From positions 1-60,258 of the IMG/VR virus record IMGVR_UViG_3300009167_000009: DNA of 60,258 bases; one strand, given 5' to 3'. The position numbers and the translations under genes are program-made. A model generated the notes under the pieces. It was not told where the DNA came from, did no database searches, and saw nothing but the letters and a program-made list of their open reading frames with translations. This DNA is from a virus (Duplodnaviria; Caudoviricetes). Position 1 is the stretch's first letter; every line of letters begins with the position of its first letter. Below are positions 8,767-58,311 of this stretch, piece by piece.

Positions 8767-8782
8767 AGAAAAGGGGGCAGGC

Positions 8783-9847: not shown

Positions 9848-9856
9848 GAGGCTCCT

Positions 9857-10051: not shown

Positions 10052-10067
10052 AAGGAGGGAGGGGCAA

Positions 10068-31003: not shown

Positions 31004-31225
31004 CTACTTCTTGACTGGGGGGCCGACACGGATTCCTCCGATGTAGCGTTCCTGTTCGTCAATGCCGAACGCCTCGGCCAGTGCCACGGCGATCACGAAA
31101 CTCCGACTGACGTTGTGGCGACGGGCCAGCCGCTCGACCTCGTGCCGGATGTCCCGAATGACACAGGCCGGCAGGGGATCACGCCCGCCCTTCACTGGGC
31201 GTTGACGACGGATCGGCTTCTTCAT
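31004..31225 (-). CDS. ribbon-helix-helix DNA-binding protein
   Basis: IRHEVERLARRHNVSRSFVIAVAL pattern. Confidence 0.7.
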   Translation of the reverse strand: MKKPIRRQRPVKGGRDPLPACVIRDIRHEVERLARRHNVSRSFVIAVALAEAFGIDEQERYIGGIRVGPPVKK

Positions 31226-31490
31226 GGACCTCCTTCTTGGCCCACCGCTTGGCGTTCATGGCCGCGATCTTCTTCTTCCCCTCCGGGGTCTGCGTCCAGT
31301 GGGGCTTGGACGCCTTGTGGCGTTTGGTGGCGAGATCCTTGCGGATGGCCTTGGCCTTCTTCTTCAGTTCCGGCACGACGGCGGGGGTGTCTTCGCCCCA
31401 CATCGCCCCCAGGCGATCCAGGTCGTCGGCCGTGGCGGACAGCTGCGTCGCCATCGCTCGCATCGCGCTGGACAGTCCTTTGGCGATCAT
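31179..31490 (-). CDS. basic hypothetical protein
   Basis: MIAKGLSS...HWTQTPEGKKKI; ATGA overlap. Confidence 0.6.
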   Translation of the reverse strand: MIAKGLSSAMRAMATQLSATADDLDRLGAMWGEDTPAVVPELKKKAKAIRKDLATKRHKASKPHWTQTPEGKKKIAAMNAKRWAKKEVHEEADPSSTPSEGRA

Positions 31491-31735
31491 GCCTTTCTCC
31501 CCCGGCGCAACCGGCCCTTGATGGGAACGGGTGCTTCCGTGACCAGGGAAGGGTCCAGGTCGGTGCCGCCGAACACGGCGCTCAACGCTTGGGTCACGGC
31601 GGACAGTACCGTGTCGAATTCCGCTTGCCAGACGTTCATGGACTGGGTGCGCGTGATCTTTCCCTCCCCATCCAACGACTGGATGCGGACGAAGATCCGT
31701 TCGCTCGTGGGTTTCTGACCAAACTGTAACGGCAT
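31487..31735 (-). CDS. hypothetical protein
   Basis: MPLQFGQK start after AGGAGG. Confidence 0.6.
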   Translation of the reverse strand: MPLQFGQKPTSERIFVRIQSLDGEGKITRTQSMNVWQAEFDTVLSAVTQALSAVFGGTDLDPSLVTEAPVPIKGRLRRGRKA

Positions 31736-31746
31736 ACGGTGACCTC

Positions 31747-32106
31747 CTACTCGGTGAAAATGTGGACAGGCACGCCAGCACTTGCGGCGCGGTTCACCAT
31801 GTCCTTTGTCCCTTTGGACTCGGACAGGTTCGGGTGAAAGGCCAGCACCAGATGGATGCCGGTCTTCAACATCAGTTGGTTGCGGATCGGACCAGCGGCC
31901 CGTCCCTGCGTCCCCCAGTTCGCTGGGTACTCCTCCACGTCCATGTTCAGTTGCCACGCGCAACTAGTGGCCAGGGTGTCTGCGCCCCGGCATCCGCCAG
32001 CGATGACGGTGATGGGACCGACGTGCTTCTTCCGAAGCTCCAGCAACTCACGATAGATGCTGGCCCGGTTGGTCCAGTTCCGGTCGCCACAGACGAGCAC
32101 TCTCAT
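31747..32106 (-). CDS. SLOG-family (DUF2493/YspA-like) nucleotide-binding protein
   Basis: MRVLVCGDRNW, GGCRGAD, AAGPIRNQLM, SKGTKDM. Confidence 0.85.
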   Translation of the reverse strand: MRVLVCGDRNWTNRASIYRELLELRKKHVGPITVIAGGCRGADTLATSCAWQLNMDVEEYPANWGTQGRAAGPIRNQLMLKTGIHLVLAFHPNLSESKGTKDMVNRAASAGVPVHIFTE

Positions 32107-42107: not shown

Positions 42108-42919
42108 AGCGATTGTCCTTTCCCGGACGTGGGTGAGCTGCGGTGACGGGTCGGGTCGTGAGCTAATGGCAACGGACGGTGGACTGCGGAGTGGAGGGGT
42201 GGACCGGTGGGAAACAGGGGTCCGGTCGGCGGCACGCGCTGCGCGGCCGACCGGACCCGTGCTCTCACGTGCGCGGGTGCGCTCGGTTGGCCGTGTGCGA
42301 CAAGGATTTGGGCGACTTACCGCGACGTCAGCGAACCCACGGTTCCGACGACTGCGGCGACCGGCCGGGTGCGGGATCTTGGGCTTGGGTGCCTTGGTCC
42401 CCACGCATCCAGAGCTTGTCCGGTCCCTGTCTCGTCAGAATGTGTGCCACCCGCCGCACTGCGGCGAATGGTGCCGTGGGGGAACTGACGACCGCGCTGG
42501 GTCGCCGGGGCGCGTGTTTGCTGCGCGCCGGGTGTCTGCGCGTTGGTCACGGGTGCCACGACTGACAGATAAACCGCCCGGCCACCAACTTCGTTGGCGG
42601 CGTTGTGGCGTCCTGCGTGGCGTGTCCCGATCTGCGCAAACCCCTTCCCTTCCCCGTCGGGACCGTGGACGGACACGGCCCTGCCGATGCGGTTGTCAAA
42701 GCTGCGACGCCCACTCACGGTCCCGATTTCTGCGGCATGTAAGTCGGACGGGACGCGCCACATGGTTGCTGGCACGAAGCCGGTGGGGGCCGACGCGCAG
42801 ATGGCGTCGGCCGTGGGCGGTAGGACACCGATGGACTCGACTGTATACGGCGACGTGAGACGGACCCGTCCGTCCCCCGTCCGTCCGCCGCATCCGCCGT
42901 GTCCACATGCCATGTGGAC

Positions 42920-42955
42920 ATGGTATCAATCCTATTGGGGATAGCAACTACAAAA
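42920..42955 (-). promoter_or_regulatory. sigma70-like promoter with upstream TTTTGTAG motif
   Basis: TTTTGTAG-TTGCTA-N16-TACCAT with TG extension. Confidence 0.55.
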
Positions 42956-43539
42956 GGTGGACTGAAACCTACAAAAGTGTCTGACTTTTGTTCAGAAAAA
43001 CAGGGCGAGCCTGCTATGGAAGAAAGACGGACAGAGGGGAGAGTGGCATCCTCATTGCATGTGGTGAGGGAAAAGTAGGGGGAAGGGAAAGATTAAGTGT
43101 TAGCCAGTTTCGAGTTCTTCGAAGCCCTTCCGCTCGGTCTTTCTGACTACGATCTGGCCCTCAGGGGAGTCCTTTCTCCACGCGGTGTAGTTCTACAAAG
43201 CCTATACAGCTGAATACCGCCTCGCGAAGACTTTAAGCCCCTTATTCTACATCTTACTACGAGTGTAGACGAGATAAGGCTCACAAAGTGGAACATACCA
43301 CGCATCGTCCGCTTTATAGACTACATAAGGCTTGCTTACGCCTTTCTCCAGCCCAGCCTGGCCGAGACTGCCTATCGTCTTTCTGGAGTAGAGAATAGAT
43401 AAGGCTAGGGCTAGGTGGCGGCGGCTCCAGCGCGCGCTTCTAGCGCTAGCGCTCCCGGATCTCAGGCAAGCCCTAGGCGGCGATCCGAAGCCTCGCCCCT
43501 TCCTCAGGGGGAGCGGAGCAGAGGCTGGGCACCCGGCCG

Positions 43540-43580
43540 AAAAAAAACGACCGGACCGGCCGCGATGGCCGATCCGGCCG
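43540..43580 (-). terminator. intrinsic terminator
   Basis: - strand CGGCCGGATCGGCC-ATCGC-GGCCGGTCCGGTCG followed by T8. Confidence 0.85.
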
Positions 43581-43596
43581 TTTCCGGCCGTTCCGT

Positions 43597-43827
43597 TTAC
43601 CGCATGTTCACGTCGCGTAATGCCGCCAACGTCATCATGTCCGGCGATACATAACACGCGTCATGCACCCCGCAATCGGCGCGTCCGCACGCGGGCGCAT
43701 ATCGGCACGTCGCCATCCCATCCGCACAACGGCGGATGTTGCGGGCAATCGGGCATCCACGCCATAATCCCGGCACCCACGTTTCGACGAATACCCGAAT
43801 TCGGTATATGTTCATTGTCGTGTCCAT
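43597..43827 (-). CDS. small Cys-rich hypothetical protein (AG/CT-free gene 2)
   Basis: 76 aa; stops just before the terminator. Confidence 0.5.
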   Translation of the reverse strand: MDTTMNIYRIRVFVETWVPGLWRGCPIARNIRRCADGMATCRYAPACGRADCGVHDACYVSPDMMTLAALRDVNMR

Positions 43828-43871
43828 GGAAACGGCCGGATCCCGCGTATGGGATCCGGCCGATTGTCCGA

Positions 43872-44543
43872 TTACGCCGTTTTGGTGTCACGCCACACAC
43901 GGGCGGCCGTTTCCGCCATCGCATTGTTCATGCCGGGTGTGTCGTTGTGGTCGTGGGCGACGAAACGCCCGAACGTCGACGCGAAATAATCCGCGTGGGT
44001 TCGATAATCGCATTTCGTGGTCCCCAACACGAAACGCCACACGGCCGCGCCGAAATTCACCGGGATCCGTTTCCACGGGATCCCGGCAACCATGAACGCA
44101 ATGTAAATCGCGTTTTGTGTCCGGGCGATATCGGACCCGGATCCCAACGTATACCGGTGACCACGTGACGGTGCCGGGGTCGCGTCGGCCGCGTTCAACG
44201 CGTCGATCCACGCGTCAAACGATGCCGCGTTCCGATCCGTGTCCGGGATCCGATTCCACGCGACGTCAATTGTCGCGCACATCGGGCCGATCCACGCGGG
44301 GACGTTTCCGACATGTTCGGGAAACAATACCCGGAACGTGTCCGGAAACGTCGGCACGGCCGGAACGTCGACGGCCGGAACGTCGGGGACAATCCCGACC
44401 AACGTGTCGGCCGACGTGGACGTGTCGGCCGTGGACGTGTCGGCCGACGTGGTAACGATGTCGGCCGGAACGTCGGCCGTGGACGGTGCCGGGATGGCCG
44501 GTACCGTGTGCCGTTTCGAACCCCGAACGGAACGTGTGGGCAT
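43872..44543 (-). CDS. hypothetical protein with low-complexity N-terminus (AG/CT-free gene 1)
   Basis: 223 aa from MPTRSV; AG-free RBS GCGGGGA; TSAD/PADV repeats then a globular domain. Confidence 0.7.
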   Translation of the reverse strand: MPTRSVRGSKRHTVPAIPAPSTADVPADIVTTSADTSTADTSTSADTLVGIVPDVPAVDVPAVPTFPDTFRVLFPEHVGNVPAWIGPMCATIDVAWNRIPDTDRNAASFDAWIDALNAADATPAPSRGHRYTLGSGSDIARTQNAIYIAFMVAGIPWKRIPVNFGAAVWRFVLGTTKCDYRTHADYFASTFGRFVAHDHNDTPGMNNAMAETAARVWRDTKTA

Positions 44544-44653
44544 GTTGTTTCCCCGCGTCGTAACGTCGACGCAACCGTCCACGCCACACGACACGCATAC
44601 GCCGTTCGCGGGATTGCGTACGGCGGAAACGGGGTCGCGTGTCATGGCGACCG

Positions 44654-44733
44654 ACCAGTTCTTGAGCTGAAGCCCTAAAGTGGAAAAAGTGATTTTACCA
44701 GTTCTTAAGCTTGCCCCCTAAAGTGGGAAAAGT
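44654..44733. repeat. tandem 37 bp direct repeat (period 43)
   Basis: 44654-44690 versus 44697-44733, 31/37 identical. Confidence 0.85.
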
Positions 44734-44749
44734 CAATAAAGCTACGAGC

Positions 44750-44958
44750 AATTCAACTCACGTTTGGCGAACCCCCCCCGTGTCCGGTGGTGCGGCCCCA
44801 TTGATGGGAAGTCCCCCAATAACCACCCGATCTTATATGTCTTAAGTAATTTTTTTTTTTTAACTAAGGATCAATGATCATGGGGGCCAACCCGCCTTCC
44901 CCCATTACCGGCCCCCCTCCCCGCCCACCACGTCCATGTGCCAACCGTGAGGTGAATT
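44750..44958. repeat. palindromic origin-like element, copy 2
   Basis: aattcaactcacgtttggc ... gccaaccgtgaggtgaatt around an AT-rich core with T12; same architecture as 28481-28680. Confidence 0.75.
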
Positions 44959-45094
44959 CCGCATTTTTGAGCAAGTTTCCCCGCAATCCGTAAGTCCCCC
45001 CAATACAACAACTTACCAACTTCCTTCCCCTACTTAATCGCCGCCCCATCCCCCGAAAAAACCCGTCAAAAAAAGTGCGGCGATTTCCCCCCGA

Positions 45095-45105
45095 TGTGGT
45101 ATGAT
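45095..45105 (+). promoter_or_regulatory. extended -10 promoter, probably giving a leaderless mRNA
   Basis: TGTGG-TATGAT ending 6 nt before ATG at 45112. Confidence 0.5.
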
Positions 45106-45111
45106 CCCCCC

Positions 45112-45798
45112 ATGAGCGACCGCCCAACCGACCAAGCCCCGCCGCGCCCCGAATGCGCCCTTCCCGGATGCCAGTCGCCAGCGGCACGCCGCTACGACCG
45201 CCCTGGGAAGTATCGGCGGTGGTGCGACCGGCACACCCGCCGCACCGCACGGCACAAGACCCATCGCCGGGGCCGTCCCCCCATCGCACAGCCCCCGGAC
45301 CCCGACGCCCCCGATGCCCGCGTATGCCCGGTTCCAGGGTGTGTCCGCAAGCGCGAATTGCGGGGCCGTCACCCCACCACCGGCCACCCCATCTTCCGCT
45401 GGACGTGTCAAGCGCATCGGGGCGCGATTCCGAACCGCACCGTGCCGCCGCCCCCGCCAGCCAAGCCCCGCACGCCGTGGAAGCCACAAGTGGACGCCCC
45501 CGTCCACCCCTTGCCCATTCCCGCCCCCATCAAGACCAAGAAACATCGCGGCCCCACGCACACGCCGCTGGTCAACGCCCCCGTGTCCGTGCCCGCCGTG
45601 ACCGTGACCACGTCGAGCGACGGCACCTGGCAATTGAGCCGGGACGATGTCACCTTCTTGACCCAGCAACAGCGGCGCGGCACGCCCGCCTTCGAAGTCG
45701 GCATGTCCCCCCACCTCAGCCGCCCCCTGCCCACCAGTGTCGTGTATCGGGTCTGGGGGTTGATGAATCGCGAAGAACTTAAACTGGAGGACGTATGA
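45112..45798 (+). CDS. Pro/Arg-rich protein with two CxxPGC...CxxH Zn-finger-like motifs
   Basis: CALPGC..WCDRH and CPVPGC..TCQAH. Confidence 0.6.
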   Translation: MSDRPTDQAPPRPECALPGCQSPAARRYDRPGKYRRWCDRHTRRTARHKTHRRGRPPIAQPPDPDAPDARVCPVPGCVRKRELRGRHPTTGHPIFRWTCQAHRGAIPNRTVPPPPPAKPRTPWKPQVDAPVHPLPIPAPIKTKKHRGPTHTPLVNAPVSVPAVTVTTSSDGTWQLSRDDVTFLTQQQRRGTPAFEVGMSPHLSRPLPTSVVYRVWGLMNREELKLEDV

Positions 45799-46007
45799 AA
45801 CGGACGCGAATACAGGTGACCGTAGACATCCAGACCGAGGACGAGTGGGCGTCCGGGGGCATTGAACCCTGGCGCGTCAGTCGGGCTATCGTCTTGCCCG
45901 CCGCAGACCACATGAATCCGGAAGCGATACGCTCGGCAATACATGTCGTGTGTGACGAAGTCATCGGGAACACCGTCGAGTATCTCGGCCTGAGGTTCCC
46001 CGCATGA
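45795..46007 (+). CDS. hypothetical protein
   Basis: 70 aa, GGAGG RBS, ATGA overlaps. Confidence 0.55.
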   Translation: MKRTRIQVTVDIQTEDEWASGGIEPWRVSRAIVLPAADHMNPEAIRSAIHVVCDEVIGNTVEYLGLRFPA

Positions 46008-46243
46008 CCCTGGGCGTGCGACTGGTCGGACACAGCCCCCTGCACCCCCAGACCCAGGTCACCCTGGACGGGCAGGACATTACCCAATCCCTTCGTGGAC
46101 TGGCGATTCGGGCCTACGTCGGGGAATTGACGGAAGTCACGCTGGACCTGATTGGCGTCACCCTTGACACATCCCTTCAGGAGGTGTCCGTGCCGGTGCA
46201 ATACACGCTACCGTTTCCAGAAGCGGAGGCCGTCCGTGCGTAG
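46004..46243 (+). CDS. hypothetical protein
   Basis: 79 aa beta-rich, coupled. Confidence 0.55.
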   Translation: MTLGVRLVGHSPLHPQTQVTLDGQDITQSLRGLAIRAYVGELTEVTLDLIGVTLDTSLQEVSVPVQYTLPFPEAEAVRA

Positions 46244-46423
46244 CTCGACCGAGACCGTGGTGGAAGTGTACTGGGATCGGGACGGCTGGCGGTTTCGCAC
46301 CGTCCATACGCGACGGCAGCTGGGCGACACGAGTGTGCTCTATTCCAGTAAGACCAAATGCCTGCGGGACGCCCGGTTGTGGCACCCAGGCGTGCCGGTG
46401 GTCTTCATACCGAAGGAGAACGC

Positions 46424-46861
46424 ATGACACGGGAAGGCCGAGAGGAAGACCGGGAATATCTCGCCCTCGCCAAGCGCCTCGCCCACCTGGAGGCGGAGAA
46501 CACGGCGCTGAAGGCGGAGCAACGCGCTGATGGTCAAGCTATCGACCTATTGCGTGGGCAAAAGCATCAGGCCGAAGCCGGGCGCGACGCCCTCCACGCC
46601 GACCTCGCCAAAGCCCGTGCCTACATTGAGGCGGATAAGGACGCCCACTGTCTGCCGACCTGTGACTCGCGTGGCCACGACGCCAACTGCCCCTATGTCG
46701 ATGCGGTGGAACACTTCGCGCAAGTCAAGGCCGACCTCGCACGGGCGCGGGCGGTGCTGGAGACGGTGGTTGAGTGTGGGGCACATCCGTTTAGTGATTC
46801 CCTATACCTGATAGGGATAGACCGCGCCGCATGGCAGGCGTGGCGTGAGGGGAAGCCATGA
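46424..46861 (+). CDS. coiled-coil hypothetical protein
   Basis: MTREGRE start after AAGGAG. Confidence 0.55.
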   Translation: MTREGREEDREYLALAKRLAHLEAENTALKAEQRADGQAIDLLRGQKHQAEAGRDALHADLAKARAYIEADKDAHCLPTCDSRGHDANCPYVDAVEHFAQVKADLARARAVLETVVECGAHPFSDSLYLIGIDRAAWQAWREGKP

Positions 46862-47142
46862 CGGACATCAAGGCGCTGCGCGAGGCGGTGGCTGAAACCA
46901 TCCCCTATTGTGGTCAAGGCGAAACCGTGCCGAACGCATGGGCGCGGCGCGGAAGGGCCGAGCGTAAGCTGCTTGACGCTATCCCTGCCCTGCTCGACGA
47001 ACTCGAAGCGGCGCGGGCGGTGCTGGACAGCGCCGCGTTGACGGGCGACACGTCCTGGGATCATCCACCTGATCCACGCGTGGTGGTGACGCTGGACAAA
47101 GCGAAGTGGTTGGCATGGCGGGAGGCGAAGCATGAGTCGTAA
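46858..47142 (+). CDS. hypothetical protein
   Basis: AIPALLDELEAAR motif; C-terminus resembles that of the preceding gene. Confidence 0.55.
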   Translation: MTDIKALREAVAETIPYCGQGETVPNAWARRGRAERKLLDAIPALLDELEAARAVLDSAALTGDTSWDHPPDPRVVVTLDKAKWLAWREAKHES

Positions 47143-47686
47143 GGTGAAGATTGCCATTGACGAAGGCGAGGAGTACCCCGTCTATAGCCTGGACCCGTTG
47201 AAGGGGCGGAAGGCCGGTGTATGGGAGAACGTGGTCGAGGTGGATGCAGCAACGTTGAAGCGCTGGCAAGATGCCATCGCGGCGGCGAACGCCGTCAACG
47301 TGGAACTGGGAGAGTTGCACAACCGCCTGGAAACTGAACGGCGGAACCGGGAATTAGAGTCCCGCCGCGCCACTTTTCGCTATGTGAACGATGGTGCCGT
47401 GTTGATGAAGGGCAAGGCGACCATTGGCCTGCTCCTGGACGATGGCGCGATCTACGAGGAACAGACCGTTAAGAACAACACCACGGCCGTCACATGGGAC
47501 AGTGTCCCAGACGGGAAGGTGGTCGTCGGGTATCGCTCACGAATGCCGACGCCGAAGGGCATTCTGAAGGAGTTCCCTGAGTACAAGAAGGAAATCGTGC
47601 TGAAGGTGATGCTGCCCGATCCCGTCACGGCGAACGGCGGCGACATTACGCTCACGTTTGAGCAAGGCATTCATCTGTTGGCCTAG
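47132..47686 (+). CDS. hypothetical protein
   Basis: 184 aa, GGAGG RBS. Confidence 0.6.
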   Translation: MSRKVKIAIDEGEEYPVYSLDPLKGRKAGVWENVVEVDAATLKRWQDAIAAANAVNVELGELHNRLETERRNRELESRRATFRYVNDGAVLMKGKATIGLLLDDGAIYEEQTVKNNTTAVTWDSVPDGKVVVGYRSRMPTPKGILKEFPEYKKEIVLKVMLPDPVTANGGDITLTFEQGIHLLA

Positions 47687-47695
47687 GAGGAAAGG

Positions 47696-47914
47696 ATGAG
47701 CATGGGATGGCAATGTCCGCGATGCGGGCGGATCTATGCCCCGTTCGTGGCCGAATGCGAGCGGTGTAACACCCCGGCCACGACCACGACCGGCACCTAC
47801 ACGGACGTCTGCGCCAACTGTGGTCAGCCGAGGCACTTGCCCGGTTTGACCAGCTGCCCTCTGGGGTCGCACTGGGGGACGTTCACGACCACCCGCACAC
47901 CGGACACGACATGA
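47696..47914 (+). CDS. Cys-rich hypothetical protein
   Basis: GWQCPRCGRIYAP..C..C. Confidence 0.6.
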   Translation: MSMGWQCPRCGRIYAPFVAECERCNTPATTTTGTYTDVCANCGQPRHLPGLTSCPLGSHWGTFTTTRTPDTT

Positions 47915-48046
47915 AGACACAGATCAACGTCATCCGGTTAGTTTCTCCCAGCGATGACGCCCTTTGTTGCACGTTTCGAGAACCGTGGATGGGACCGCAC
48001 CCGTTGTGCGAGGTGGAAACGACACGACTAGCAAAGGAGTATCACG

Positions 48047-48412
48047 ATGCTTTCGCGGCGGGGATTTCTCACCGGCACCTTGATGGCCGCAGCCACGGCC
48101 GGAACCGCACTGCTGACGGCGACACCCGAAGAAATACAGGCCTTCGGTAAGCCCTTAGTCGGGCCGGTCCGTGTGATGCAGCCCGATCCCATTCCCATCG
48201 TCGCAGACATGCGCCCGATGGGAGAGGCCGGAGAATTCGTGTACAATCACAAGGGCGACATCATCGGGGTCATTTCCGAGATGACCGTCACACGCGAGCC
48301 CATTGACGTGACTTCCTACGGTATGGACTGGCGTGCATATCGGTCGGGACTGTTGGAGGTCCGCTATACCGTCGTCGGCACCGGATTTGCCCAGGTAAAG
48401 GTCGGCACATGA
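48047..48412 (+). CDS. twin-arginine (Tat) signal protein
   Basis: MLSRRGFL followed by a hydrophobic stretch; AAGGAG RBS. Confidence 0.65.
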   Translation: MLSRRGFLTGTLMAAATAGTALLTATPEEIQAFGKPLVGPVRVMQPDPIPIVADMRPMGEAGEFVYNHKGDIIGVISEMTVTREPIDVTSYGMDWRAYRSGLLEVRYTVVGTGFAQVKVGT

Positions 48413-49092
48413 AAATTGCCCTTCGTCGCGCACAGGAAAAGCAAACACAGGCGATGGTCCCCCCGCGCTCGGGACGGTGCAATGCTATTCTACCCAGCGG
48501 TAAACGGTGTGCGCGGCCCAGCGGTAGCGGGACCACCCATGCGGGGTTGGGGCCGTGTCATCTGCACCAGACGGCCAAGAAACCCTACGATCCGACACGC
48601 CGGTACCGCGAGGCCATCGAGGACGGCACGATCCGGGCGCGGCTGTCGAAGTTGGGGAAGGTCGAGGATGACCTCCTGGATCTGATGCCCGAGGTCCAGA
48701 TGGTACGGGCCTTGATCATTGAGTTCATCAATCGCTATGACGAGTTGACGGGTGCCCTTATCGAGTGGAACCGGGAGAAAATCGGGCGCCCCCAAGCCGT
48801 GCCCGATATCACCCAGGCCGCCAGCCTACTGGAGATGGTCACCCGCATGGTCGAGCGCATCCATCGGATCCAGACGACCGGGGCGATCTCCCTTGACACC
48901 TTTCGCCGCGTGTTAGAAGAAATGGGCATCGTCGTGGCTCGCCATGTGCGAGACGGCGCGACCCTGGACAGGATCGAGGTCGATTGGGCAAAGATTTCAA
49001 CCACCGACCGCGGCCGAGTCGAGGCGTTGCCCGAGTCCCAGACCAACGCCAAGCACGCATTGTCGCCTCCATCCGAGCGTGATGCGTCTTAG
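48409..49092 (+). CDS. terS: terminase small subunit (putative)
   Basis: C..C..G.GT.H.G.G.C..H N-terminal motif; helical body; directly upstream of TerL. Confidence 0.7.
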   Translation: MKIALRRAQEKQTQAMVPPRSGRCNAILPSGKRCARPSGSGTTHAGLGPCHLHQTAKKPYDPTRRYREAIEDGTIRARLSKLGKVEDDLLDLMPEVQMVRALIIEFINRYDELTGALIEWNREKIGRPQAVPDITQAASLLEMVTRMVERIHRIQTTGAISLDTFRRVLEEMGIVVARHVRDGATLDRIEVDWAKISTTDRGRVEALPESQTNAKHALSPPSERDAS

Positions 49093-49107
49093 TTGGCCCC
49101 TTTCCCA

Positions 49108-49137
49108 TTGACTTCACCTGTCTTTGTCAGGGATAAT
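49108..49137 (+). promoter_or_regulatory. sigma70-like promoter before TerL
   Basis: TTGACT-N18-GATAAT ending 8 nt before ATG. Confidence 0.45.
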
Positions 49138-49145
49138 CCGCGCCG

Positions 49146-50752
49146 ATGAAACCGCCACGTACCCTGGGGGACGTCTTGTTGCGACGGCAGGCCGAGCCGA
49201 CCTCGACCTCGACGCCACTGATGCCCGCAATTACCGGGCTGCGGGCCGCACGCGGTGATACTCCCAAGCAACAGCGTATCGCCGCGTGTGAATCCAGTAT
49301 CGAGACATTTTGTACGACCTACCTCCGGCACCACTTCTCCAAGAAGTTCTGTGAGCTCCACCACGACATCTTCACGATTTGCGACGACCCGGCCCCCGGC
49401 AAACGCAAAGCCCGCATCGCGCCCAGAAAGTTCGGCAAGACCACCATCATCAGCTTAGCCAAACCGTTACAGGAGCTCGCGTATAAGCGCAAAGAATTCA
49501 TCCTGATGATTGGCGAGGCGGCGGCGGTTGCCGAGTCGAACCTGGCCACCATCATTCAGGAGCTCGACACCAACGAACTACTGCTCCAGGATTTCCCGCA
49601 CCTCTCGCCCGCAAAAGACCCCAAGGGCCAGATGATCAAATGGACGGACCGTCAGCTGGTCTTTGTCAGCGGCGCAACCGTCGTGGCCAAGGGGATGGGC
49701 AGCCGGATGCGCGGCCTAAAACATCGTCATGCGCGACCGGACATGGCGATTCTGGACGATCCGGAGTCGCCCGAGACGGCCGATACGTTCCTGAAACGGC
49801 GGCGGCACAAGCGGTGGTTCGGCGGCACGTTCCTGGGATTGGGCGCGTCGGACTGGGACGTGTACGTGATCGGGAACTTGCCGAATCACGATTGTCTAAT
49901 TGCGGACTTGGTCAAGGATCCGGCATGGGATGGCCGGTTATGGCGAGCGATCAACATCCCCGCTCGTAGAGATGAGCGCTACCCCCTTGGCAACACACGG
50001 GAGGATGGCTCCGCCCTGTGGCCAGAGGAATGGTCGCTCGCCAAACTCGAGGCCTATAAGAAGGAGCCCGAGGTCGGATCGCTGGGGTTTGCGCGGGAAA
50101 TGCTGAATGACCCGCGCGAGGAAGAAGACAAGTCCTTTGACCCGGCGACGTTCACGTATCTGGAATGGACGCCGAACTTGTTGTCGACGTACTCGGCCAT
50201 TCGGACCTATATCGACCCGGCCGGAGGGGAGAAGCCAGGGGAGATGAAACGGGGCAAGCGGGACTGGTGCGTGGTGGTGACGGCGGGGCGCACGAAGAAG
50301 GAAGGCTATATCGACGTGTTCGATGTCCGGATGAACCGCTTTCTTCCCAACAAACAGATTCAGGTCATGTTAGACGCTTACGCCGCGTATGGGGCGCAGG
50401 AAATCGGCGTCGAGGAAAACATGTTCAAGAACCTGATTGCGCCCACGATCCAGGGCCTTGCGCGGAAACGTGGCCTCTATCCGCGCATTGTGCCGAACGT
50501 CAACACCTCGAATAAGATTAGCCGCATCCTGGGCATTCAGCCGCTGATTGAAAGCGGGGTGGTGCGGTTCGCTCGCCATCTGGTCGATAAGGTGCCGGAG
50601 TACTTTGGGCAGTTCGACGAGTTCCCTGCGGACTTTGACGATGGTCCCGATGCCAGTGAAGGCGTCATCCGCATGTTAGAATCCGGACGGAAGTCCTTTG
50701 GCCGGTTGTCGGGGCCAACCGCGTCGAAGTCGTATTGGAAGGGAGTGGCCTG

Positions 50753-50753
<1 letters not shown>
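49146..50753 (+). CDS. terL: terminase large subunit
   Basis: APRKFGKT, MRG...RPDMAILDDPE, nuclease YIDPA, GVEEN, DDGPDA. Confidence 0.93.
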
Positions 50754-52193
<1,440 letters not shown>

Positions 52194-52194
<1 letters not shown>

Positions 52195-52409
52195 TGCCTA
52201 CCGCCTTTGTCCCAGCGTACCCTTCTCGCCCTCGGACACGTTCGATCAACGTCCAAGAAGCGGTGACCCAGCAACTGACCCAGATGCGCGAGCTGCTCGA
52301 CGTCGCACACGATGTCCGTGCCATCACAATCAGTGTAAAGATGAAGAACGGTACCCCCGTTGTACGCGCCGTTGTTGTGCAGATCGACACGGAGACGACC
52401 ATCGAGTGA
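52194..52409 (+). CDS. hypothetical protein
   Basis: 71 aa, TAATG overlap with portal. Confidence 0.55.
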
Positions 52410-52417
52410 AATAATCG

Positions 52418-52446
52418 TTGACATGCCCCCCGTCAAGTGGTAGTTT
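52418..52446 (+). promoter_or_regulatory. sigma70-like promoter for head genes
   Basis: TTGACA-N17-TAGTTT with TG extension. Confidence 0.6.
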
Positions 52447-52484
52447 CTAGACAGGCCATACGCTCGTCCGTCAGAGGGGTGGAG

Positions 52485-52526
52485 ACGGGACGCACACCAG
52501 CATTGGGTTGCGCGTCCCGTTTTTTT
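52485..52526 (+). terminator. intrinsic terminator
   Basis: ACGGGACGC...GCGTCCCGT stem followed by a T run. Confidence 0.75.
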
Positions 52527-52537
52527 GTAGGAGAGTG

Positions 52538-52921
52538 ATGGTGCAAGTCATTAAAACCGACGCCAAACGCCAACAGGTCTTCGGCTGGGCCAGCATCGCC
52601 ATGTCCACTGACGGAGAAGCCGTGGTGGATTCCTACCAGGATATCATCGTGCCCGAGGATTTGGAGGATGCGGCGTACGACTTTGTCCTTCGCTTCCGTG
52701 ACTTGAACGAACGCCATGAAGGCCCGGTCCAGGGCCATTTGATTGAGTCGTTGGTCGTGACCCCGGAAAAGTTGGAGAAGATGGGGCTTGGCGGTTCGGC
52801 CCTTCCCGTGGGGTGGTGGGTGGGATTCTGGGTGCCAGACGCTCGCATCTTTGCCAAGATCGAGTCGGGCGAGTACACCATGTTCTCTATCGAAGGACAC
52901 GCGCACCGTGTCCCGGCATAA
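52538..52921 (+). CDS. XkdF-like putative prohead serine protease
   Basis: QQVFGWA, VDSYQD, NERH, IES, GWWVGF, GEYTMFSIEG. Confidence 0.8.
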   Translation: MVQVIKTDAKRQQVFGWASIAMSTDGEAVVDSYQDIIVPEDLEDAAYDFVLRFRDLNERHEGPVQGHLIESLVVTPEKLEKMGLGGSALPVGWWVGFWVPDARIFAKIESGEYTMFSIEGHAHRVPA

Positions 52922-52941
52922 GGAAAGGCAGGAGGGGCAAG

Positions 52942-53547
52942 ATGCCGTATCGGTTGCGTGACCTGACGATTTCAAAGGTCGCGCTCGTTCCCAAGGGAGC
53001 CAATCCTGGCGCCCATATCGTGTTGTTCAAGCACGATCCCTCGACACCGGGGCCGCTATCCGTTTTGACGGCGGAGGATGCCCCTGCCCCGGCAGTCGCT
53101 GCCGTACCGGATGCGGCCCCGGTCTCGAGAGAGCTGGTCTCCTTTGCAGGACCGGACTCGACCTGGCCCATTCACACGCCGCAGGATGTGACGACGGTGG
53201 TCCGGGCGCTGACTCGCTCGGGAAAATCGGGGCTGATTACACGCGGGCGGAAGGACCGTATCACGCGCCGCACCATTGCTTTGGCCAAAGCAAAGGGACC
53301 GGCGTTCGAAGCACGGCTCCCGCCTGCGTGGCGCGTGGCCAAGGTGCAGTTCACGGATGTCCAGTCGGACTACGAGCAAATGGAGAAGAAGGAAGAAGCG
53401 TGGGAGGCCATCTCAGCGTATATGGACTCGTTGAGATTGGCGATGGGCATGACCCTGTTCGCGGGAGATGGCCCGATGTCCGATATCGACAAGTCCATTA
53501 GCCAGTTCCGTGACGCGGTGGCCGCTGCGCTTACGGACGTTTCCTGA
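52942..53547 (+). CDS. head morphogenesis protein (protease-associated)
   Basis: RLRDLTISKVALVPKGANPGA.I.LFK N-terminus; FAGPDSTWPI segment. Confidence 0.6.
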   Translation: MPYRLRDLTISKVALVPKGANPGAHIVLFKHDPSTPGPLSVLTAEDAPAPAVAAVPDAAPVSRELVSFAGPDSTWPIHTPQDVTTVVRALTRSGKSGLITRGRKDRITRRTIALAKAKGPAFEARLPPAWRVAKVQFTDVQSDYEQMEKKEEAWEAISAYMDSLRLAMGMTLFAGDGPMSDIDKSISQFRDAVAAALTDVS

Positions 53548-53560
53548 AGGAGAGAACGAC

Positions 53561-54151
53561 ATGAAGGTATCCATTGACCGAGCCAAGCTGAGCCAGGATG
53601 AAGTGGCTCGCCTGGACGAGCTCGAAGCTCTGGCCAAGCAGCACGAGCCCGACCCGGAACCGGAGCCGGAACTGCCGGACACGGTAAAGAAGGAGTTGGC
53701 GGACCAGCGGGACGCCATCGCCAAACAGGCCGCCGAGAACGAATCGCTTCGCCAGGAGATTGCCAAGCGCGATGAGGCCATTGCGCGAGAGGCGTTCATC
53801 AAGGCCGAGTCCGGTACCGTGCCGTCGCTGCCGGGAACGGCCGATGAAAAGGGCGCGGTGCTGTACACGTTGTCGAAGGCCTTGGCCAAGGAGGACTACG
53901 ACAAAGTCATTGCCCTCCTCAAGGCCGGGGACGCGGCCCTGGCCGCGAACCTGACGGCGACAGCCGAGGTTGGCACGACGCACGCGTTGACCGGGGCCAC
54001 GGCCCTGGACCAGATGACGGAACTGGCTAAGACCAAGGTGGAAAAGGGCGAGGCCAAGACGATGGCCCTGGCCTTCGACATGGTAACTCGCGAACACCCG
54101 GAACTGGCCGCCAAGCACCTGAACGCCTCGCGCGGCACGGCCGTCGAATAA
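53561..54151 (+). CDS. scaffolding protein (putative)
   Basis: Acidic helical protein; AAGGAG RBS; upstream of decoration and capsid genes. Confidence 0.65.
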   Translation: MKVSIDRAKLSQDEVARLDELEALAKQHEPDPEPEPELPDTVKKELADQRDAIAKQAAENESLRQEIAKRDEAIAREAFIKAESGTVPSLPGTADEKGAVLYTLSKALAKEDYDKVIALLKAGDAALAANLTATAEVGTTHALTGATALDQMTELAKTKVEKGEAKTMALAFDMVTREHPELAAKHLNASRGTAVE

Positions 54152-54179
54152 CCCGATAGTCATCAAAGGAGACAACGAC

Positions 54180-54569
54180 ATGGCATTCGAGATTCCTGGC
54201 CAGCAGCTGTCGTTCGAGGCAGCGGCGGACCTCAGCGCGAAGCGATTCTATTTCGTCAAGCTTGACTCGGACGCCAAGCTGGTGCTGTGCGGAGCGGTCA
54301 CGGACCTTCCCATTGGCATTTTGCAGAATACCCCGACCCTGGGCCAGATGGCGACCGTCATGGTCGATGGCGTGTCTAAGGTCGTGGGCGGTGCGGATCT
54401 GGCCAAGGGGAATATGGTCGGCACCGACGCCAACGGCAAGGCGGCGGCGTACGTGCATGGCACCGACACCACGAAGTACATTGTGGGGCAGGTGCTGCTT
54501 GATAACTCCGCGGATGGTGGGATTGCCACCATCGTCTTCAACTGCATCGGCGCGGGCCGTGCGGCCTAG
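54180..54569 (+). CDS. capsid decoration/cement protein (DUF2190-like)
   Basis: AAADL...YFVKL...IGILQN.P..G..A.V...GVSKV. Confidence 0.75.
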   Translation: MAFEIPGQQLSFEAAADLSAKRFYFVKLDSDAKLVLCGAVTDLPIGILQNTPTLGQMATVMVDGVSKVVGGADLAKGNMVGTDANGKAAAYVHGTDTTKYIVGQVLLDNSADGGIATIVFNCIGAGRAA

Positions 54570-54712
54570 TGATAACTGGTCATGCACTTACGTACTCTGC
54601 AGCTTCATCTGGTGTTCATCCGCCTCATCCGGGGCGGGTGTTCGGCATGGGAAGCGTGGGTCCGTGAGCAACTGGCCGCATTGAAACAGACTTCTGACCA
54701 GGAGCAGAAAAC

Positions 54713-55681
54713 ATGAGCGTTCTCGTCCGAAAGGCCCAGCCGTCGCAGAGTGAAGTTCACACCGACGAAATGCTGGACAACATCAGTATCGCCTACATCC
54801 AGTCGCAGGATGCGTACCTCTTTCCGAAGGTGTTTCCCATCGTCCCGGTCGGGAAGCAGTCGGATAAGTACTACACGTTCACCAAGAATGACTGGTTCCG
54901 TGACGAGGCCCAGAAGCGGGCCGACTCGACGGAGTCGGCCGGCAGCGGGTACGGCCTCTCGTCGGACAGCTACTTCTGCGATGTGTGGGCGTTCCACAAG
55001 GACGTCGGTTCGCAGACGCGTGCCAACGCCGACACGCAGATCGACCTGGCGCGTGGTGCGGTGCAGTTCGTGACCCAGCGCCTGTTGCTCCGGCAGGAAC
55101 TGCAGTGGGTGGCCGACTATTTCACCACCAGCAAGTGGGGGACGGACGCCACACCGAGCAACCTGTGGAGCGATTATACGGCCTCTGATCCGATGGAAGA
55201 CATCGAGACGGCGAAGGAGACCATTCTGTCCACAACCGGGTTCCTGCCGAACACCCTGGTGCTTGGGTACCAGGTCATGCGGAAGCTGAAGAATCACCCG
55301 GACTTCCGTGATCGGATCAAGTACACGTCGGCGGAGAACATCACTCCGGCGCTGCTTGGTTCACTGCTGGAAATCCCGAACGTCTACGTGGCCAAGTCGA
55401 TTAAGGCGACCAACCTCGAGGGCGAAACGGCCGGGTACGCGTTCGCGCACGGTAAGCACGCCTGGCTGGGCTACGTGAACCCGACGCCTGGACTCATGAT
55501 GCCGTCAGCGGGGTACACGTTTGCGTGGACCGGCGTCAGCAGCACGCCGTCGTCCACCATCGGCATCGACCAATTCGAGATGCGCTCGATCAAGTCGATC
55601 CGGTACGAGGGTGAAGTCGCGTTCGACAACAAGGTGGTGTCGTCCGACCTCGGGTATTTCTTCAACGGGGCGGTGGCGTAG
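54713..55681 (+). CDS. major capsid protein
   Basis: 322 aa; L.NISIAY, FP.VPV.KQS.KY, PNTLVLG, PSAGYTF, DLGYFF..AVA. Confidence 0.88.
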   Translation: MSVLVRKAQPSQSEVHTDEMLDNISIAYIQSQDAYLFPKVFPIVPVGKQSDKYYTFTKNDWFRDEAQKRADSTESAGSGYGLSSDSYFCDVWAFHKDVGSQTRANADTQIDLARGAVQFVTQRLLLRQELQWVADYFTTSKWGTDATPSNLWSDYTASDPMEDIETAKETILSTTGFLPNTLVLGYQVMRKLKNHPDFRDRIKYTSAENITPALLGSLLEIPNVYVAKSIKATNLEGETAGYAFAHGKHAWLGYVNPTPGLMMPSAGYTFAWTGVSSTPSSTIGIDQFEMRSIKSIRYEGEVAFDNKVVSSDLGYFFNGAVA

Positions 55682-55798
55682 ACCACGCCCGAATAGGCAA
55701 TGGGTCCGGGAGTGGCTGGGTGCTCCCGGACCTTCTGCCTCCTTTGAGTACGGCCCTCGGCGCATGTGGCGCGGGGGGATTTGCAGAGGGGACATGAC

Positions 55799-56476
55799 AT
55801 GCCGCAGATCATCACCAAAGGAAAAGCCATCGCGGGTCAGTATTCGCTCGTCTCGGGCGTGATGTGGATTTCTGGGTCTGGTGCGCCGTCCGATGGCGTC
55901 ACGGGCGCGGGTGTGGCCGAGAAGGGTTCGTTCTATGTGCGTCTGTCGAACGGGGCGCACTACTACAACACGGGGACGAAGGCCTCGCCCACCTGGACCC
56001 TGGTCGGTACCATTTCGTCGGATACGGTTACGTCCGCCATGATGACGGAGACGTTGATCAAGTATGCCGAGGTAGCTATCAGTTCAGCGGACATTGTCTC
56101 GGCATCGGCGGGCAAACTCAGTCACGCTCAGGGTCAGATTCTTGTGGCTGCGCCGGGTGCAGGCAAGCTGCTCGAGCTGCTCAGTGCCACGCTCATCTAC
56201 GACTACGCCGGAGCCGGGTACGGCGGTGGCGGTAACTTGACAGTTAACTGGAGTGCGGGCGGTGCGGCGTTGACCGGTCTGGTCAGTGCGGCCAACTCGC
56301 TTGGCGCGGGGGCTGACAAAGTTGTTACCTTCGTTCCACTGTCCACGGCCGCGATCCCGATGGTGGTCAACGCAGGACTGAATCTAGTTACGTCCTCGGT
56401 CCCCTGGACCCTTGGTTCGGCCACAGGCGTGGTCCGTATGAAGGTGGCGTACCGCGTTCACACCACGGGCCTGTAA
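55799..56476 (+). CDS. putative head-associated structural protein
   Basis: GSGAP...GSFY...YYNTGTKASPTW motif; directly after capsid gene. Confidence 0.6.
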   Translation: MPQIITKGKAIAGQYSLVSGVMWISGSGAPSDGVTGAGVAEKGSFYVRLSNGAHYYNTGTKASPTWTLVGTISSDTVTSAMMTETLIKYAEVAISSADIVSASAGKLSHAQGQILVAAPGAGKLLELLSATLIYDYAGAGYGGGGNLTVNWSAGGAALTGLVSAANSLGAGADKVVTFVPLSTAAIPMVVNAGLNLVTSSVPWTLGSATGVVRMKVAYRVHTTGL

Positions 56477-56486
56477 GGAGGGCTGA

Positions 56487-56834
56487 GTGGACATCCTATA
56501 CCGTGGAGCCGTGGTTCTTGGCAGCCAGACGTTGAGCAAAACGACTACTGCGAATCCGATGGCGGATGTGGGCGTGCTCGCGGTGGATGTGCTTCGGACC
56601 AAGTACCTCACGTTCAGCGCCGTGACCAATACGTTATCGGTCCAGATTCTGGGCAGCCAAGATGGTGGACTGACGTATCCCACAACGGTCGAGGCCGCGT
56701 TCGATGTCACGGTCGCGGCACAGGTGTTGAAGACGAACACCACGTTCTATACGCATCTCAAAATCCAGGTGGCTCCCAAGGTCGGGGGGTCGCATGGGAC
56801 GTTGACGGCACGGTTCAAAGGATCGTCGTACTGA
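56487..56834 (+). CDS. hypothetical structural protein
   Basis: 115 aa beta-rich; AAGGAGG RBS. Confidence 0.55.
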   Translation: MDILYRGAVVLGSQTLSKTTTANPMADVGVLAVDVLRTKYLTFSAVTNTLSVQILGSQDGGLTYPTTVEAAFDVTVAAQVLKTNTTFYTHLKIQVAPKVGGSHGTLTARFKGSSY

Positions 56835-56850
56835 CATTGGAGGGGCAGCC

Positions 56851-57054
56851 ATGTTGTGCGTGGTACAGAAGAAATTCGACGGGCCGGGAGACCGGCACTA
56901 TACGGTCGGTGAGCTGGTGGATGCGACGGACTGGCGGCTTCGCGACAAGTTGATCGAGGGCCGTTATATGCGTCCCGCGACGGATCGTGAAGTCGCCTCG
57001 GCCGAAGAAGTTGACGTACCGGAGAAACCGGTGCGGAAACGGAGTAAACGGTGA
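56851..57054 (+). CDS. hypothetical protein
   Basis: 67 aa, GGAGG RBS. Confidence 0.55.
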   Translation: MLCVVQKKFDGPGDRHYTVGELVDATDWRLRDKLIEGRYMRPATDREVASAEEVDVPEKPVRKRSKR

Positions 57055-57461: not shown

Positions 57462-57462
57462 C

Positions 57463-57828: not shown

Positions 57829-57830
57829 CT

Positions 57831-58268: not shown

Positions 58269-58311
58269 ACCGCACATTGTATCACATGCCGGGTCAGGCA
58301 GGGACAGTAAC

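Follow-up and report, generated by a model that had tools for sequence, protein, structure and literature searches.

Organization of the locus

The window analysed here, a viral DNA of 60,258 nucleotides (IMG/VR record IMGVR_UViG_3300009167_000009), carries a compact cassette beside the strand switch. The virus record is typed 'linear', and the cassette is called first here in the sense that it heads the minus-strand arm. The cassette and its surroundings contain the following features:

44654..44733, minus strand: two 37-nt direct repeats, 43 nt apart, ending exactly at the edge of the void
44692-44700, minus strand: TGgTAAAAT, an extended -10-like motif between the 37-nt repeats
43527..44656, both strands: AG/CT-free zone of 1,130 bp with zero sites
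44544..44656, minus strand: leader of 113 nt, AG/CT-free (10.4 sites expected)
43872..44543, minus strand: ORF A, 223 aa, with GGGGA 7 nt upstream of the ATG
43828..43871, minus strand: intergenic spacer, AG/CT-free (4.0 sites expected)
43830-43865, minus strand: hairpin with a 15-bp stem within the intergenic spacer
43597..43827, minus strand: ORF B, an open reading frame of 76 aa, Cys-rich
43540..43590, minus strand: intrinsic terminator, a long G+C hairpin followed by T8 (43540-43547)
42943..43525, no strand: non-coding AG/CT-rich island of 583 bp, directly behind the terminator
43266..43406, minus strand: AGCCTTATNTNNTCTA, three promoter-like copies, inside the island and nowhere else

Both open reading frames have the coordinates and the TAA stops that an earlier sequence-only reading of this DNA had assigned to them. 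It had likewise correctly described the cassette as the first unit of the minus-strand arm, the ribosome-binding site upstream of the ATG at 44543 as atypical and the T8 tract as lying 13 bp within the zone edge. The start position of most ORF A relatives corresponds to the ATG at 44543 (MSKR/MPTR-like). An in-frame upstream ATG at 44645 would extend ORF A to 257 aa. The leader is partly conserved in relatives, where it is read as 'VRNPANG' in mis-called N-terminal extensions; folding predicts base pairing between it and the ribosome-binding site GGGGA (fold z -2.1). No relatives of ORF B were found, and its region (43593-43829) is skipped in one contig of another study (X4).

The 37-nt repeat region is AG/CT-rich (18 sites per 100 bp) and is probably a promoter or operator; a relative from study X3 has a single copy of the repeat. 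Should TAAAAT at 44692-44697 serve as the -10 element, 8 AG/CT sites would fall within the first ~30 nt transcribed. Scanning the window with Rfam and a tRNA search yielded nothing, and a search of RNA sequencing runs for the window sequence returned no RNA run holding it.

A transcription unit without AG or CT

A full recount of the window gave 5,419 AG/CT sites (0.090 per bp), with none across 43527..44656 on either strand. The claim that AG and CT are absent between the CT at 43525 and the AG at 44657 is therefore exact, and the dinucleotide counts proposed as a check leave this 1,132-bp gap standing alone, as the runner-up in the window measures only 74 bp. At the rate of the rest of the genome, 103.6 sites would be expected per 1,130 bp, or ~131 from the zone's own base composition, and the chance of finding none is P ~ e^-104. 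Other strand-symmetric dinucleotides have no comparable gap in the window (maximum 563 bp, for the rare TA). Among 18 control loci comprising relatives, phage M6 and the G006 contig (233,590 bases), the longest AG/CT gap was 91 bp.

The void is limited by the end of the promoter-like repeat on one side and ends just past the terminator on the other. As had been proposed, it spans coding and non-coding sequence of one promoter-to-terminator unit; ~227 nt inside it are non-coding, where ~21 sites would be expected. Given that it takes in the leader, ORF A, the hairpin, ORF B and the strong terminator, the absence is not a codon effect. Exclusion of a word together with its reverse complement is a signature of duplex recognition, and the strand symmetry of the sequence thus favours recognition of duplex DNA.

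With 109 AG/CT sites (18.7 per 100 bp), the adjoining island is the richest stretch of the genome and exceeds the average of other 583-bp windows by more than 9 sd (mean 53.0, sd 6.0, max 72). Its RNA fold is ordinary (z 0.31). With the repeat region, AG/CT-dense DNA lies on both sides of the ORF A cassette.

Conservation in the ORF A family

Within the cassette, the codons CTN, AGN, NAG and NCT are all absent. Leu is encoded by TTR only, Arg by CGN only, Ser by TCC/TCA/TCG only, and Lys, Gln and Glu by AAA, CAA and GAA only, with a G-starting codon never next. An AG/CT-free coding strand therefore forbids K, Q or E followed by V, A, D, E or G, a rule by which the void can be read from protein sequence; this is how it was assessed in 30 ORF A relatives, L018 apart. 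In 26 of the 30, none of 267 K/Q/E residues precedes one of these five residues, against a background of 449/1,209 (37%) for the same dipeptide rule in this phage. Leu makes up ~2% (1-3%) of the signature-bearing relatives versus 7.7% in the background. P0022, a relative of normal composition, has 9.4% Leu, which indicates that the ORF A fold tolerates this residue.

Judged from these proteins, both AG avoidance and CT avoidance are conserved in the ORF A family, in which identity falls as low as ~25%. The signature occurs in both deep clades and in proteins of many independent assemblies, while the four rows lacking it nest within one subclade; it is likely ancestral. The size of the depletion fits a long equilibrium with a shrunken codon set. 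Old and strong selection for AG/CT exclusion is thus supported by the family-wide protein signature.

At the DNA level, identical pieces of the void occur in contigs of three further studies, namely X3 (44007-44246), X4 (44207-44652) and X5 (three pieces between 43735 and 44652), and so the sequence is not an assembly artefact. The phage occurs in freshwater and wetland samples. A diverged X3 relative has 9 substitutions and 6 indels in 44622-44655, none of which creates an AG or CT, and keeps the void boundary at 44657. The expectation that relatives have an equivalent void is supported by the protein signature but not by the related phage L018, which has the same locus layout with normal AG/CT density (47 sites in the 603 nt of its ORF A homologue). 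Its second ORF is unlike ORF B, and no Pfam family was found in the ten ORFs upstream of its ORF A. At the same relative place as in the window, L018 has similar repeats ('GCGTAAGCTTAT'), and L018/G006 also have an island behind the cassette (66 sites per 400 bp; mean 39.7, sd 5.7), which in L018 aligns with that of the window only over short motifs. Since L018 keeps the layout and the island without the void, the island need not be linked to the void.

Beyond L018, no DNA relatives of ORF A were found when ORF A, P0032 and family alignments were compared with viral, metagenome and genome contigs. Neither tblastn with ORF A, P0022 and P0032 against 50,697 phage records nor blastn with 42500-46500 against phages gave a match. 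Twelve loci related through the terminase, plus five of their records, did not reach or did not hold ORF A; one of these terminase relatives, G001, stops inside the polymerase gene.

ORF A encodes a helical protein without a family match

ORF A consists of a basic N-terminus, a disordered P/A/V/T/D-rich linker and an all-helical C-terminal domain that was modelled with pLDDT 96-99. In the databases searched, the modelled helical domain matches no known family or fold. Pfam and PHROGs gave no family for ORF A, and Pfam on 31 alignment rows (ORF A and 30 relatives) gave just 4 single, weak, unrelated hits. The best PDB profile match had an E-value of 0.0084 over a short stretch; Foldseek against PDB and BFVD returned nothing at E<=0.001, the protein Atlas no usable match, and VIA-align a best Z of 4.2-4.7. 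For residues 169-257, fold matches are weak (Z 4.2 or less) and consist mostly of DNA-binding domains of the winged-helix or HTH type. Conserved polar residues include Q177, N178 and H233, along with W, C and Y positions.

Search for DNA-modification genes

The sequence-only reading had linked the void to a 'GT/ThyX cluster'. Such a cluster was not recovered: Pfam detected no glycosyltransferase, methyltransferase, nuclease or other DNA-modification family in 52 window ORFs (a scan of ORFs other than the plus-strand structural ones), and the sole find was a divergent ThyX-like protein (Pfam Thy1 E 3.8e-21; TIGR02170 58.8 bits vs a cut-off of 87.9). The set of C5-MT, TET-like dioxygenase and glycosyltransferase was likewise without a Pfam family in these 52 ORFs. 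When the thymidine-hypermodification proteins gp51-54 and gp58 of phage M6 and the neighbouring gp55 were compared with the window by tblastn, none matched (best E 0.13). At this BLAST sensitivity, the 5-hmdU DNA kinase (P-loop, 5-HMUDK) and aGPT-Pplase were unmatched (M6 gp54 and gp51, best E 1.4 and 3.2), as was the ThyA-family dUMP hydroxymethylase (M6 gp58). The matches of a 327-aa MazG and P-loop protein (21169-22152) are to polynucleotide-kinase-like families in PHROG and to 'hydrolase' genes of actinophages, and not to 5-HMUDK. In M6 itself, whose DNA carries a dinucleotide-context modification, no dinucleotide shows a void; such modification alone therefore need not demand a void.

Interpretation of the AG/CT-free cassette

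The sequence suggests some process acting on the AG/CT step in phage DNA. We consider the chances about even that the cassette is a target-free immediate-early unit evading a DNA-level agent specific for this step; the sequences show the void with its limits and coding consequences, its conservation in the family and the island, while the action on DNA, the first expression, the role of ORF A and the nature of the agent are what we infer. In favour stand the absolute and strand-symmetric absence, the age of the family signature, void limits that fall at functional elements, and the dense island that abuts the void here and also follows the cassette of L018/G006, a sign that this dinucleotide has local importance. 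Complete, family-wide exclusion implies that each site is penalised very strongly, which would point to a two-base-specific agent acting on phage DNA (less likely RNA) at the start of infection. What the agent recognises would be the AG/CT base-pair step of duplex DNA, and its effect, for instance through bulky modification of a base, a lesion, a nick or ligand binding, would be a template that can no longer be used. The whole unit from leader to terminator, ORF A and ORF B included, would be read before this agent is neutralised or bypassed, and because early reading is required, selection would have stripped every AG/CT even at the price of rewriting the protein. ORF A, a new helical protein, may then be the factor that opens the rest of the genome for use, where AG/CT density is normal and begins with the dense island.

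The agent could be the phage's own AG/CT-context modification of virion DNA, as the sequence-only reading had supposed, or come from outside, as an enzyme of the host or as a small molecule that binds DNA step-specifically; within the target-free-cassette reading we weight these two sources about evenly. Of the earlier modification proposal, the void, the extent of the unit, the strand symmetry and the selection are supported, and the GT/ThyX cluster is not supported by the 52 ORFs scanned. That void-less relatives keep the ORF A layout fits a general first gene with a void only where the DNA is marked. Against a target-free cassette speaks that an AG/CT-specific agent is neither known nor found here, that neither the 52 scanned ORFs nor the comparison with M6 yielded a modification enzyme, that M6 has modified DNA but no void, and that L018 keeps the cassette layout and the island with normal AG/CT density. 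Furthermore, if TAAAAT is the -10 element, a strict roadblock model would not tolerate the sites at the start of the transcript.

The same pattern could arise if the selecting agent acted on RNA, such as a ribonuclease of host or phage origin, or some other factor directed at RNA, with AG and/or CU as its site. We regard this as unlikely. The stable translatable mRNA would then be the AG/CU-free stretch, with its 5' leader trimmed to the last site and its 3' end at the terminator hairpin. Consistent with this, the void ends ~13-20 nt from the expected transcript 3' end, takes in the terminator hairpin, which is relevant to RNA stability and not to coding, and starts at the last AG/CU of the leader if the TSS is at ~44685. 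The ribosome-binding site is GGGGA and not a GGAG-type word; T4 RegB cuts GGAG, and mRNAs without ACA escape MazF. However, AG and its reverse complement CU are both missing from one strand, in the window and, by Leu and the dipeptide rule, in the family, so that an explanation at the RNA level calls for one agent with two unrelated specificities, or for two agents. We know of no ribonuclease with either two-base specificity, and no ribonuclease gene was recognised in the window. Self-immunity, in which ORF A itself binds, modifies or cuts DNA at AG/CT for host take-over and keeps its own gene target-free, seems to us improbable. The void does accompany one protein family over deep divergence, the flanks of the gene are AG/CT-dense on both sides, the conserved Q177, N178 and H233, with the W, C and Y positions, might make up a site of catalysis or binding in the model, and the winged-helix/HTH matches offer a lead only. 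Yet the remaining phage genome, being AG/CT-normal, would be hit too, void-less family members share the locus layout, and ORF A matches no enzymatic family or fold.

A mutational footprint that serves no function today, left by repeated context-specific editing (CT->TT, AG->AA) such as by a deaminase on transcribed DNA, would explain why the changes Leu CTR->TTR and Lys/Gln/Glu NAG->NAA are single synonymous transitions and why the void shows a mild enrichment of AA/TT (odds 1.35 vs 1.09). It is nevertheless very improbable, as the absence is total, its edges are sharp, the neighbouring DNA is the richest of the genome and the void is kept over deep divergence; a conserved protein whose composition is shifted to avoid words requires selection, not mutation only. 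A codon- or tRNA-level constraint would account for the missing CTN, AGN, NAG and NCT codons, but codon junctions and the non-coding ~227 nt are also AG/CT-free. An assembly artefact, for its part, conflicts with the same sequence in contigs from three other studies and with the signature in proteins of many independent assemblies. These non-coding and cross-study data already refute both, and we give them practically no weight.

Several further candidates were rejected. Avoidance of a CRISPR PAM or of many 4-6-bp restriction sites would not need every AG/CT to go, and 1.1 kb of site-free DNA leaves the rest of the genome unprotected. Avoidance of primase sites, avoidance of internal Shine-Dalgarno sequences and silencer binding do not predict absolute absence.

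Returning to a target-free cassette, the broader statement would be that in a widespread family of uncultured phages the first gene is kept AG/CT-free because incoming AG/CT steps are the substrate of an undescribed two-base-specific DNA-directed system, a claim to which we give somewhat less than an even chance. One form it could take is a new hypermodification under which the parental genome stays silent until licensed by ORF A; another is a new host or chemical defence, with ORF A as the protein that disarms it. Finding the agent would bring to light either a phage DNA mark of a new kind, with its own temporal switch, or a new defence together with its antidote, and ORF A would be the first representative of a new class of 'unlocking' proteins. 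Sequence alone could then lead, by way of dinucleotide voids, to such systems and their specificity. The protein signature (no K/Q/E before V/A/D/E/G, very low Leu) finds such genes from protein databases alone, and a scan for dinucleotide voids could uncover sister systems of other specificities.

Comparison with known systems

Motif avoidance in response to restriction or defence has been described for words of 4-7 bp and, more recently, for the first-injected region in particular; the first-step-transfer DNA of phage T5 is free of EcoRI sites. For Murciavirus and the Type I RM system Mme2I, absence of the motif from the first-injected region decides escape despite copies elsewhere in the genome (PMC12455610). 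The cassette resembles these motif-free leading regions in that the word is missing from a part of the genome that would have to work first and present elsewhere. It differs in that the word has only 2 bp, so that ~100 sites had to go, in that amino-acid composition is reshaped, and in that an entire protein family has conserved the absence. Leading regions free of defence motifs often carry counter-defence genes.

Two-base specificity has precedents among phage DNA-modifying enzymes. Hypermodification in TG/TC context is documented (PMC6449724), with 5-hmdU-derived bases in M6, ViI and phi W-14 (PMC6449724; PMC8989533), as are GpC-context C5-MT/5mYOX/glycosyltransferase pathways (bioRxiv 10.1101/2023.12.21.572611). 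These enzymes can mark DNA as the earlier modification model needs. Unlike in those phages, however, the defining enzymes were not found in the window ORFs scanned, and M6 has modified DNA but no modification-free zone. To our knowledge, DNA modification in AG/CT context has not been described.

Like the mRNAs that escape MazF or RegB, the cassette genes would evade sequence-specific attack by lacking the word. The words of these ribonucleases are 3-5 nt long and read on one strand, whereas a dinucleotide and its reverse complement are excluded here, which points to duplex DNA. Chlorella viruses encode frequent cutters and methylases of 2-3-base specificity, e.g., a nickase/methylase at R-AG. 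The likeness is to enzymes that act on DNA at an AG-containing word and attack host DNA with self-protection. These viruses infect eukaryotic algae, though, no homologue was recognised in the window, and we know of no report of site-free genes among them. A literature search of main articles returned no described dinucleotide-free gene or AG/CT-specific system. Set against these systems, what appears new in the sequences described here is the complete exclusion of a two-base word, kept across a family at the cost of a rewritten protein.

Size and reality of the AG/CT void

The sequence-only reading had claimed that AG and CT are missing from both strands over 43527-44656, and our recount agrees. 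Over 60,258 bp the window contains 5,419 AG/CT sites (0.090 per bp), and its longest gap spans 1,132 bp, bounded by a CT at 43525 and an AG at 44657; the runner-up measures 74 bp. For 1,130 bp, 103.6 sites are expected at the rest-of-genome rate and ~131 from the zone's own base composition. Gap counts for the remaining strand-symmetric dinucleotides revealed nothing similar, and in 18 other loci (233,590 bases in all) the maximum AG/CT gap was 91 bp.

An assembly artefact was excluded, as identical pieces of the zone are present in contigs of three further studies. Between 44622 and 44655 a diverged relative from run X3 differs from the window by 9 substitutions and 6 indels, none of which creates an AG or CT; its first AG lies again at 44657, and an unaligned continuation of 30 nt is also free of both. 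Elsewhere in the window, 563 bp at 31044-31607 lack TA (rough P 0.002), overlapping a minus-strand ORF (31179-31781).

Anatomy of the locus

The virus record is annotated as linear, with a completeness of 96%. Genes on the plus strand fill 1-10950 and 45094-60258 (terminase at 49146-50753) and those on the minus strand 11500-44645, with the zone as the first unit of the latter arm.

Features of the void locus
44654-44733, minus strand: two 37-nt direct repeats, 43 nt apart, ending exactly at the zone edge, with a TGgTAAAAT motif between the copies
113 nt inside the zone, before ORF A, minus strand: leader
44543-43872, minus strand: ORF A, 223 aa (257 aa from an in-frame ATG at 44645)
Between ORF A and ORF B, minus strand: hairpin
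43827-43597, minus strand: ORF B, 76 aa
After ORF B, minus strand: terminator, a long G+C hairpin followed by a T8 tract

The ATG at 44543 is the likely start of ORF A because most relatives begin at that position. Some 227 nt of the zone are non-coding, where ~21 AG/CT sites would be expected; these parts and the codon junctions are likewise clean, and the constraint therefore lies in the nucleic acid rather than in codons or tRNAs.

The 37-nt repeats occur nowhere else in the window, and the X3 relative carries just one copy, with 44698 joined to 44745. One X4 contig skips 43593-43829, exactly ORF B; the skipped piece is flanked by an inverted repeat of 15 nt without mismatches (43571-43585 and 43828-43842), and the contig may represent a natural variant lacking ORF B or a chimera. 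In the divergent intergenic region, 44772-44861 carries a C8 run and a T12 run in a minus-strand G-rich, low-G+C stretch, which may be a packaging or end-related site.

Coding under the constraint and nature of the products

In ORF A and ORF B, Leu is encoded only by TTG (6) and TTA (2), Arg only by CGN, and Ser only by TCC, TCA and TCG, while Lys, Glu and Gln are AAA, GAA and CAA throughout; AG or CT is present within 17.6% of codons across 18 further genes of this phage. Because AG/CT-free coding makes Lys, Gln and Glu codons end in A, a G-initial codon (Val, Ala, Asp, Glu, Gly) is barred from the position after these residues. Across 22 of the phage's proteins, one of those five amino acids follows 449 of 1,209 K/Q/E residues (37%), and Leu makes up 7.7%.

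ORF A matched no Pfam, PHROG or PDB-sequence family. AlphaFold, run on a 31-sequence alignment, modelled the first 100 residues as disordered and residues 100-257 as an all-helical domain (pLDDT 96-99). Foldseek found nothing for this model at E<=0.001, and the best VIA-align Z was 4.2; the weak rows for residues 169-257 were mostly winged-helix or HTH domains, a likeness that we treat only as a lead. Q177, N178, W203, H233 and W251 are invariant in the family. No relatives of ORF B were found.

Conservation of the signature in the ORF A family

A word-indexed search yielded 5 ORF A relatives, and a profile search of 1.84 billion representatives 27, 25 of them new. A test for an equivalent void in related phages had been suggested, and the protein signature points to one in 26 of 30 relatives, read from proteins, and from DNA for ~100 nt of one X3 contig; the homologue at L018, a locus on the related contig G006, has normal AG/CT content. 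The 26 have no forbidden dipeptide in 267 K/Q/E residues (~1e-64 if independent, which related proteins are not) and 1-3% Leu, and they are poor in Glu, Gln and Lys and rich in Asp. The depletion size fits equilibrium under the shrunken codon set, in which Leu falls from six codons to two and each of Glu, Lys and Gln keeps one of its two, with the next residue restricted.

Relative P0024 has one forbidden dipeptide, located in a mis-called N-terminal extension; P0031 has two and P0020 four. P0022, with 12 in 29, 9.4% Leu and normal composition, shows that the fold can accommodate such residues. A maximum-likelihood tree of 35 rows places the signature in each of the two deep clades; the non-void rows (P0020, P0022, P0031 and the L018 protein) all fall within a single subclade of 11 rows and require two to three changes. 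On this distribution, the void is probably ancestral and was occasionally lost.

Among ten representatives of ORF A relatives and their cluster-mates, 10 of the 13 listed contigs measure only 0.9-2.4 kb, possibly through the usual metagenome fragmentation; short contigs would also be expected if void-flanking DNA assembles or sequences poorly.

A relative without the void and an AG/CT-rich island

G006 is an IMG/VR contig of 55% G+C whose terminase and portal are 60% and 65% identical to those of the window. L018 has the same layout: its divergent intergenic region contains two repeats plus a TAAAAT motif, and next comes the ORF A homologue, which holds 47 AG/CT sites in 603 nt. Behind it lie a small unrelated ORF and a terminator, then ~0.8 kb of non-coding DNA in which promoter-like repeats occur, and then small genes.

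AG/CT-rich islands
42943-43525, window: 583 bp, non-coding, directly behind the void's terminator and bordering the void; 109 AG/CT sites, 18.7 per 100 bp
10900-11300, L018: equivalent island behind the cassette

Other 583-bp windows average 53.0 sites (sd 6.0, maximum 72), making the island the AG/CT-richest stretch in the genome, exceeding the mean by >9 sd; AG/CT is also dense in the promoter repeats on the void's other side. The richest 400-bp window of G006 (66 sites; mean 39.7, sd 5.7 over the whole 23-kb contig) likewise lies just behind the cassette's terminator. The two islands have only short motifs in common. AG/CT density is thus unusual at this locus in both phages, but the island does not depend on a void.

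Within the window's island, 43415-43531 forms the window's longest gap without AC/GT (116 bp; rough P 0.003 before multiple-test correction) and directly adjoins the void. The closest large relative, G001 (L014 / L015, 14001-46410), shares 83% DNA identity over structural genes and has ~24 kb without a DNA match between the equivalents of window positions 60249 and 549; the window may be missing a portion of the tail module, or a large insertion may be present in G001.

Search for a modification system

A Pfam scan of 52 window ORFs matched a family-A DNA polymerase with an intein, a primase, a Prim-Pol, AAA_24, a PD-(D/E)XK nuclease, a RuvC-like protein and an SNF2 helicase.

Genes considered in the search
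13813-16974: family-A DNA polymerase gene with intein (HNH_3 endonuclease domain; Pfam Intein_splicing residues 458-709)
20118-23608: three-protein cluster of a ThyX-like protein, a MazG-like/P-loop fusion and a protein placed near FAD/NAD-binding families by the protein Atlas

None of these ORFs matched a methyltransferase, a glycosyltransferase or any other family of DNA-modification enzymes. The proposed glycosyltransferase/ThyX cluster found no support, with no glycosyltransferase in the 52 ORFs and the divergent 355-aa ThyX-like protein scoring below the TIGR02170 equivalog cut-off. MazG-like and P-loop domains are fused in one 327-aa protein, and the likeness of the protein at 22625-23608 to FAD/NAD-binding proteins, suggested by the protein Atlas, is a lead only; the cluster is a possible nucleotide-metabolism or modification module. 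The hypermodification enzymes of phage M6, whose DNA is modified at TG/TC (PMC6449724), had no match in the window, and the M6 control genome has no void for any dinucleotide. The P-loop domain matched actinobacteriophage genes only (83 records) and the terminase has no cultured relative above ~28-29% identity, which hints weakly at the host.

Interpretation

AG and its reverse complement CT are both lacking, without exception, from coding and non-coding DNA of the zone, and have been kept out through a long evolutionary history. Such a pattern points to recognition of the duplex AG/CT step and to a strong penalty for each site. The location of the unit, its promoter-like element and its terminator fit a cassette that must work first. 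The reading we favour, at about even odds, is a target-free immediate-early cassette: the AG/CT step in duplex DNA would be the target, and the cassette, needed first, would be kept free of it. The agent could be the phage's own mark on virion DNA or an external one, with our expectation split about evenly. That void-less relatives keep ORF A fits an own mark slightly better; what speaks against it is that no modification gene was recognised and that M6 has no void.

Protection of the cassette at the RNA level would account for the terminator inside the zone and make sites in a trimmed 5' leader tolerable, but leaves the joint exclusion of AG and CU unexplained, and we consider it unlikely. 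Self-immunity to ORF A's own activity appears somewhat less likely still, and a mutational footprint very improbable. The chance of a codon effect or an artefact is negligible, given the AG/CT-free non-coding DNA and codon junctions on the one hand and the zone's recurrence across studies on the other.

Two-base specificity is typical of DNA-binding small molecules. It is also documented for phage hypermodification enzymes (PMC6449724, PMC8989533 and bioRxiv 10.1101/2023.12.21.572611), and actinomycete intercalators block phages early in infection (PMC13250531). The nearest known principle for the void is a motif-free first-injected region (PMC12455610): absence of a restriction motif from that region decides escape despite the motif elsewhere.
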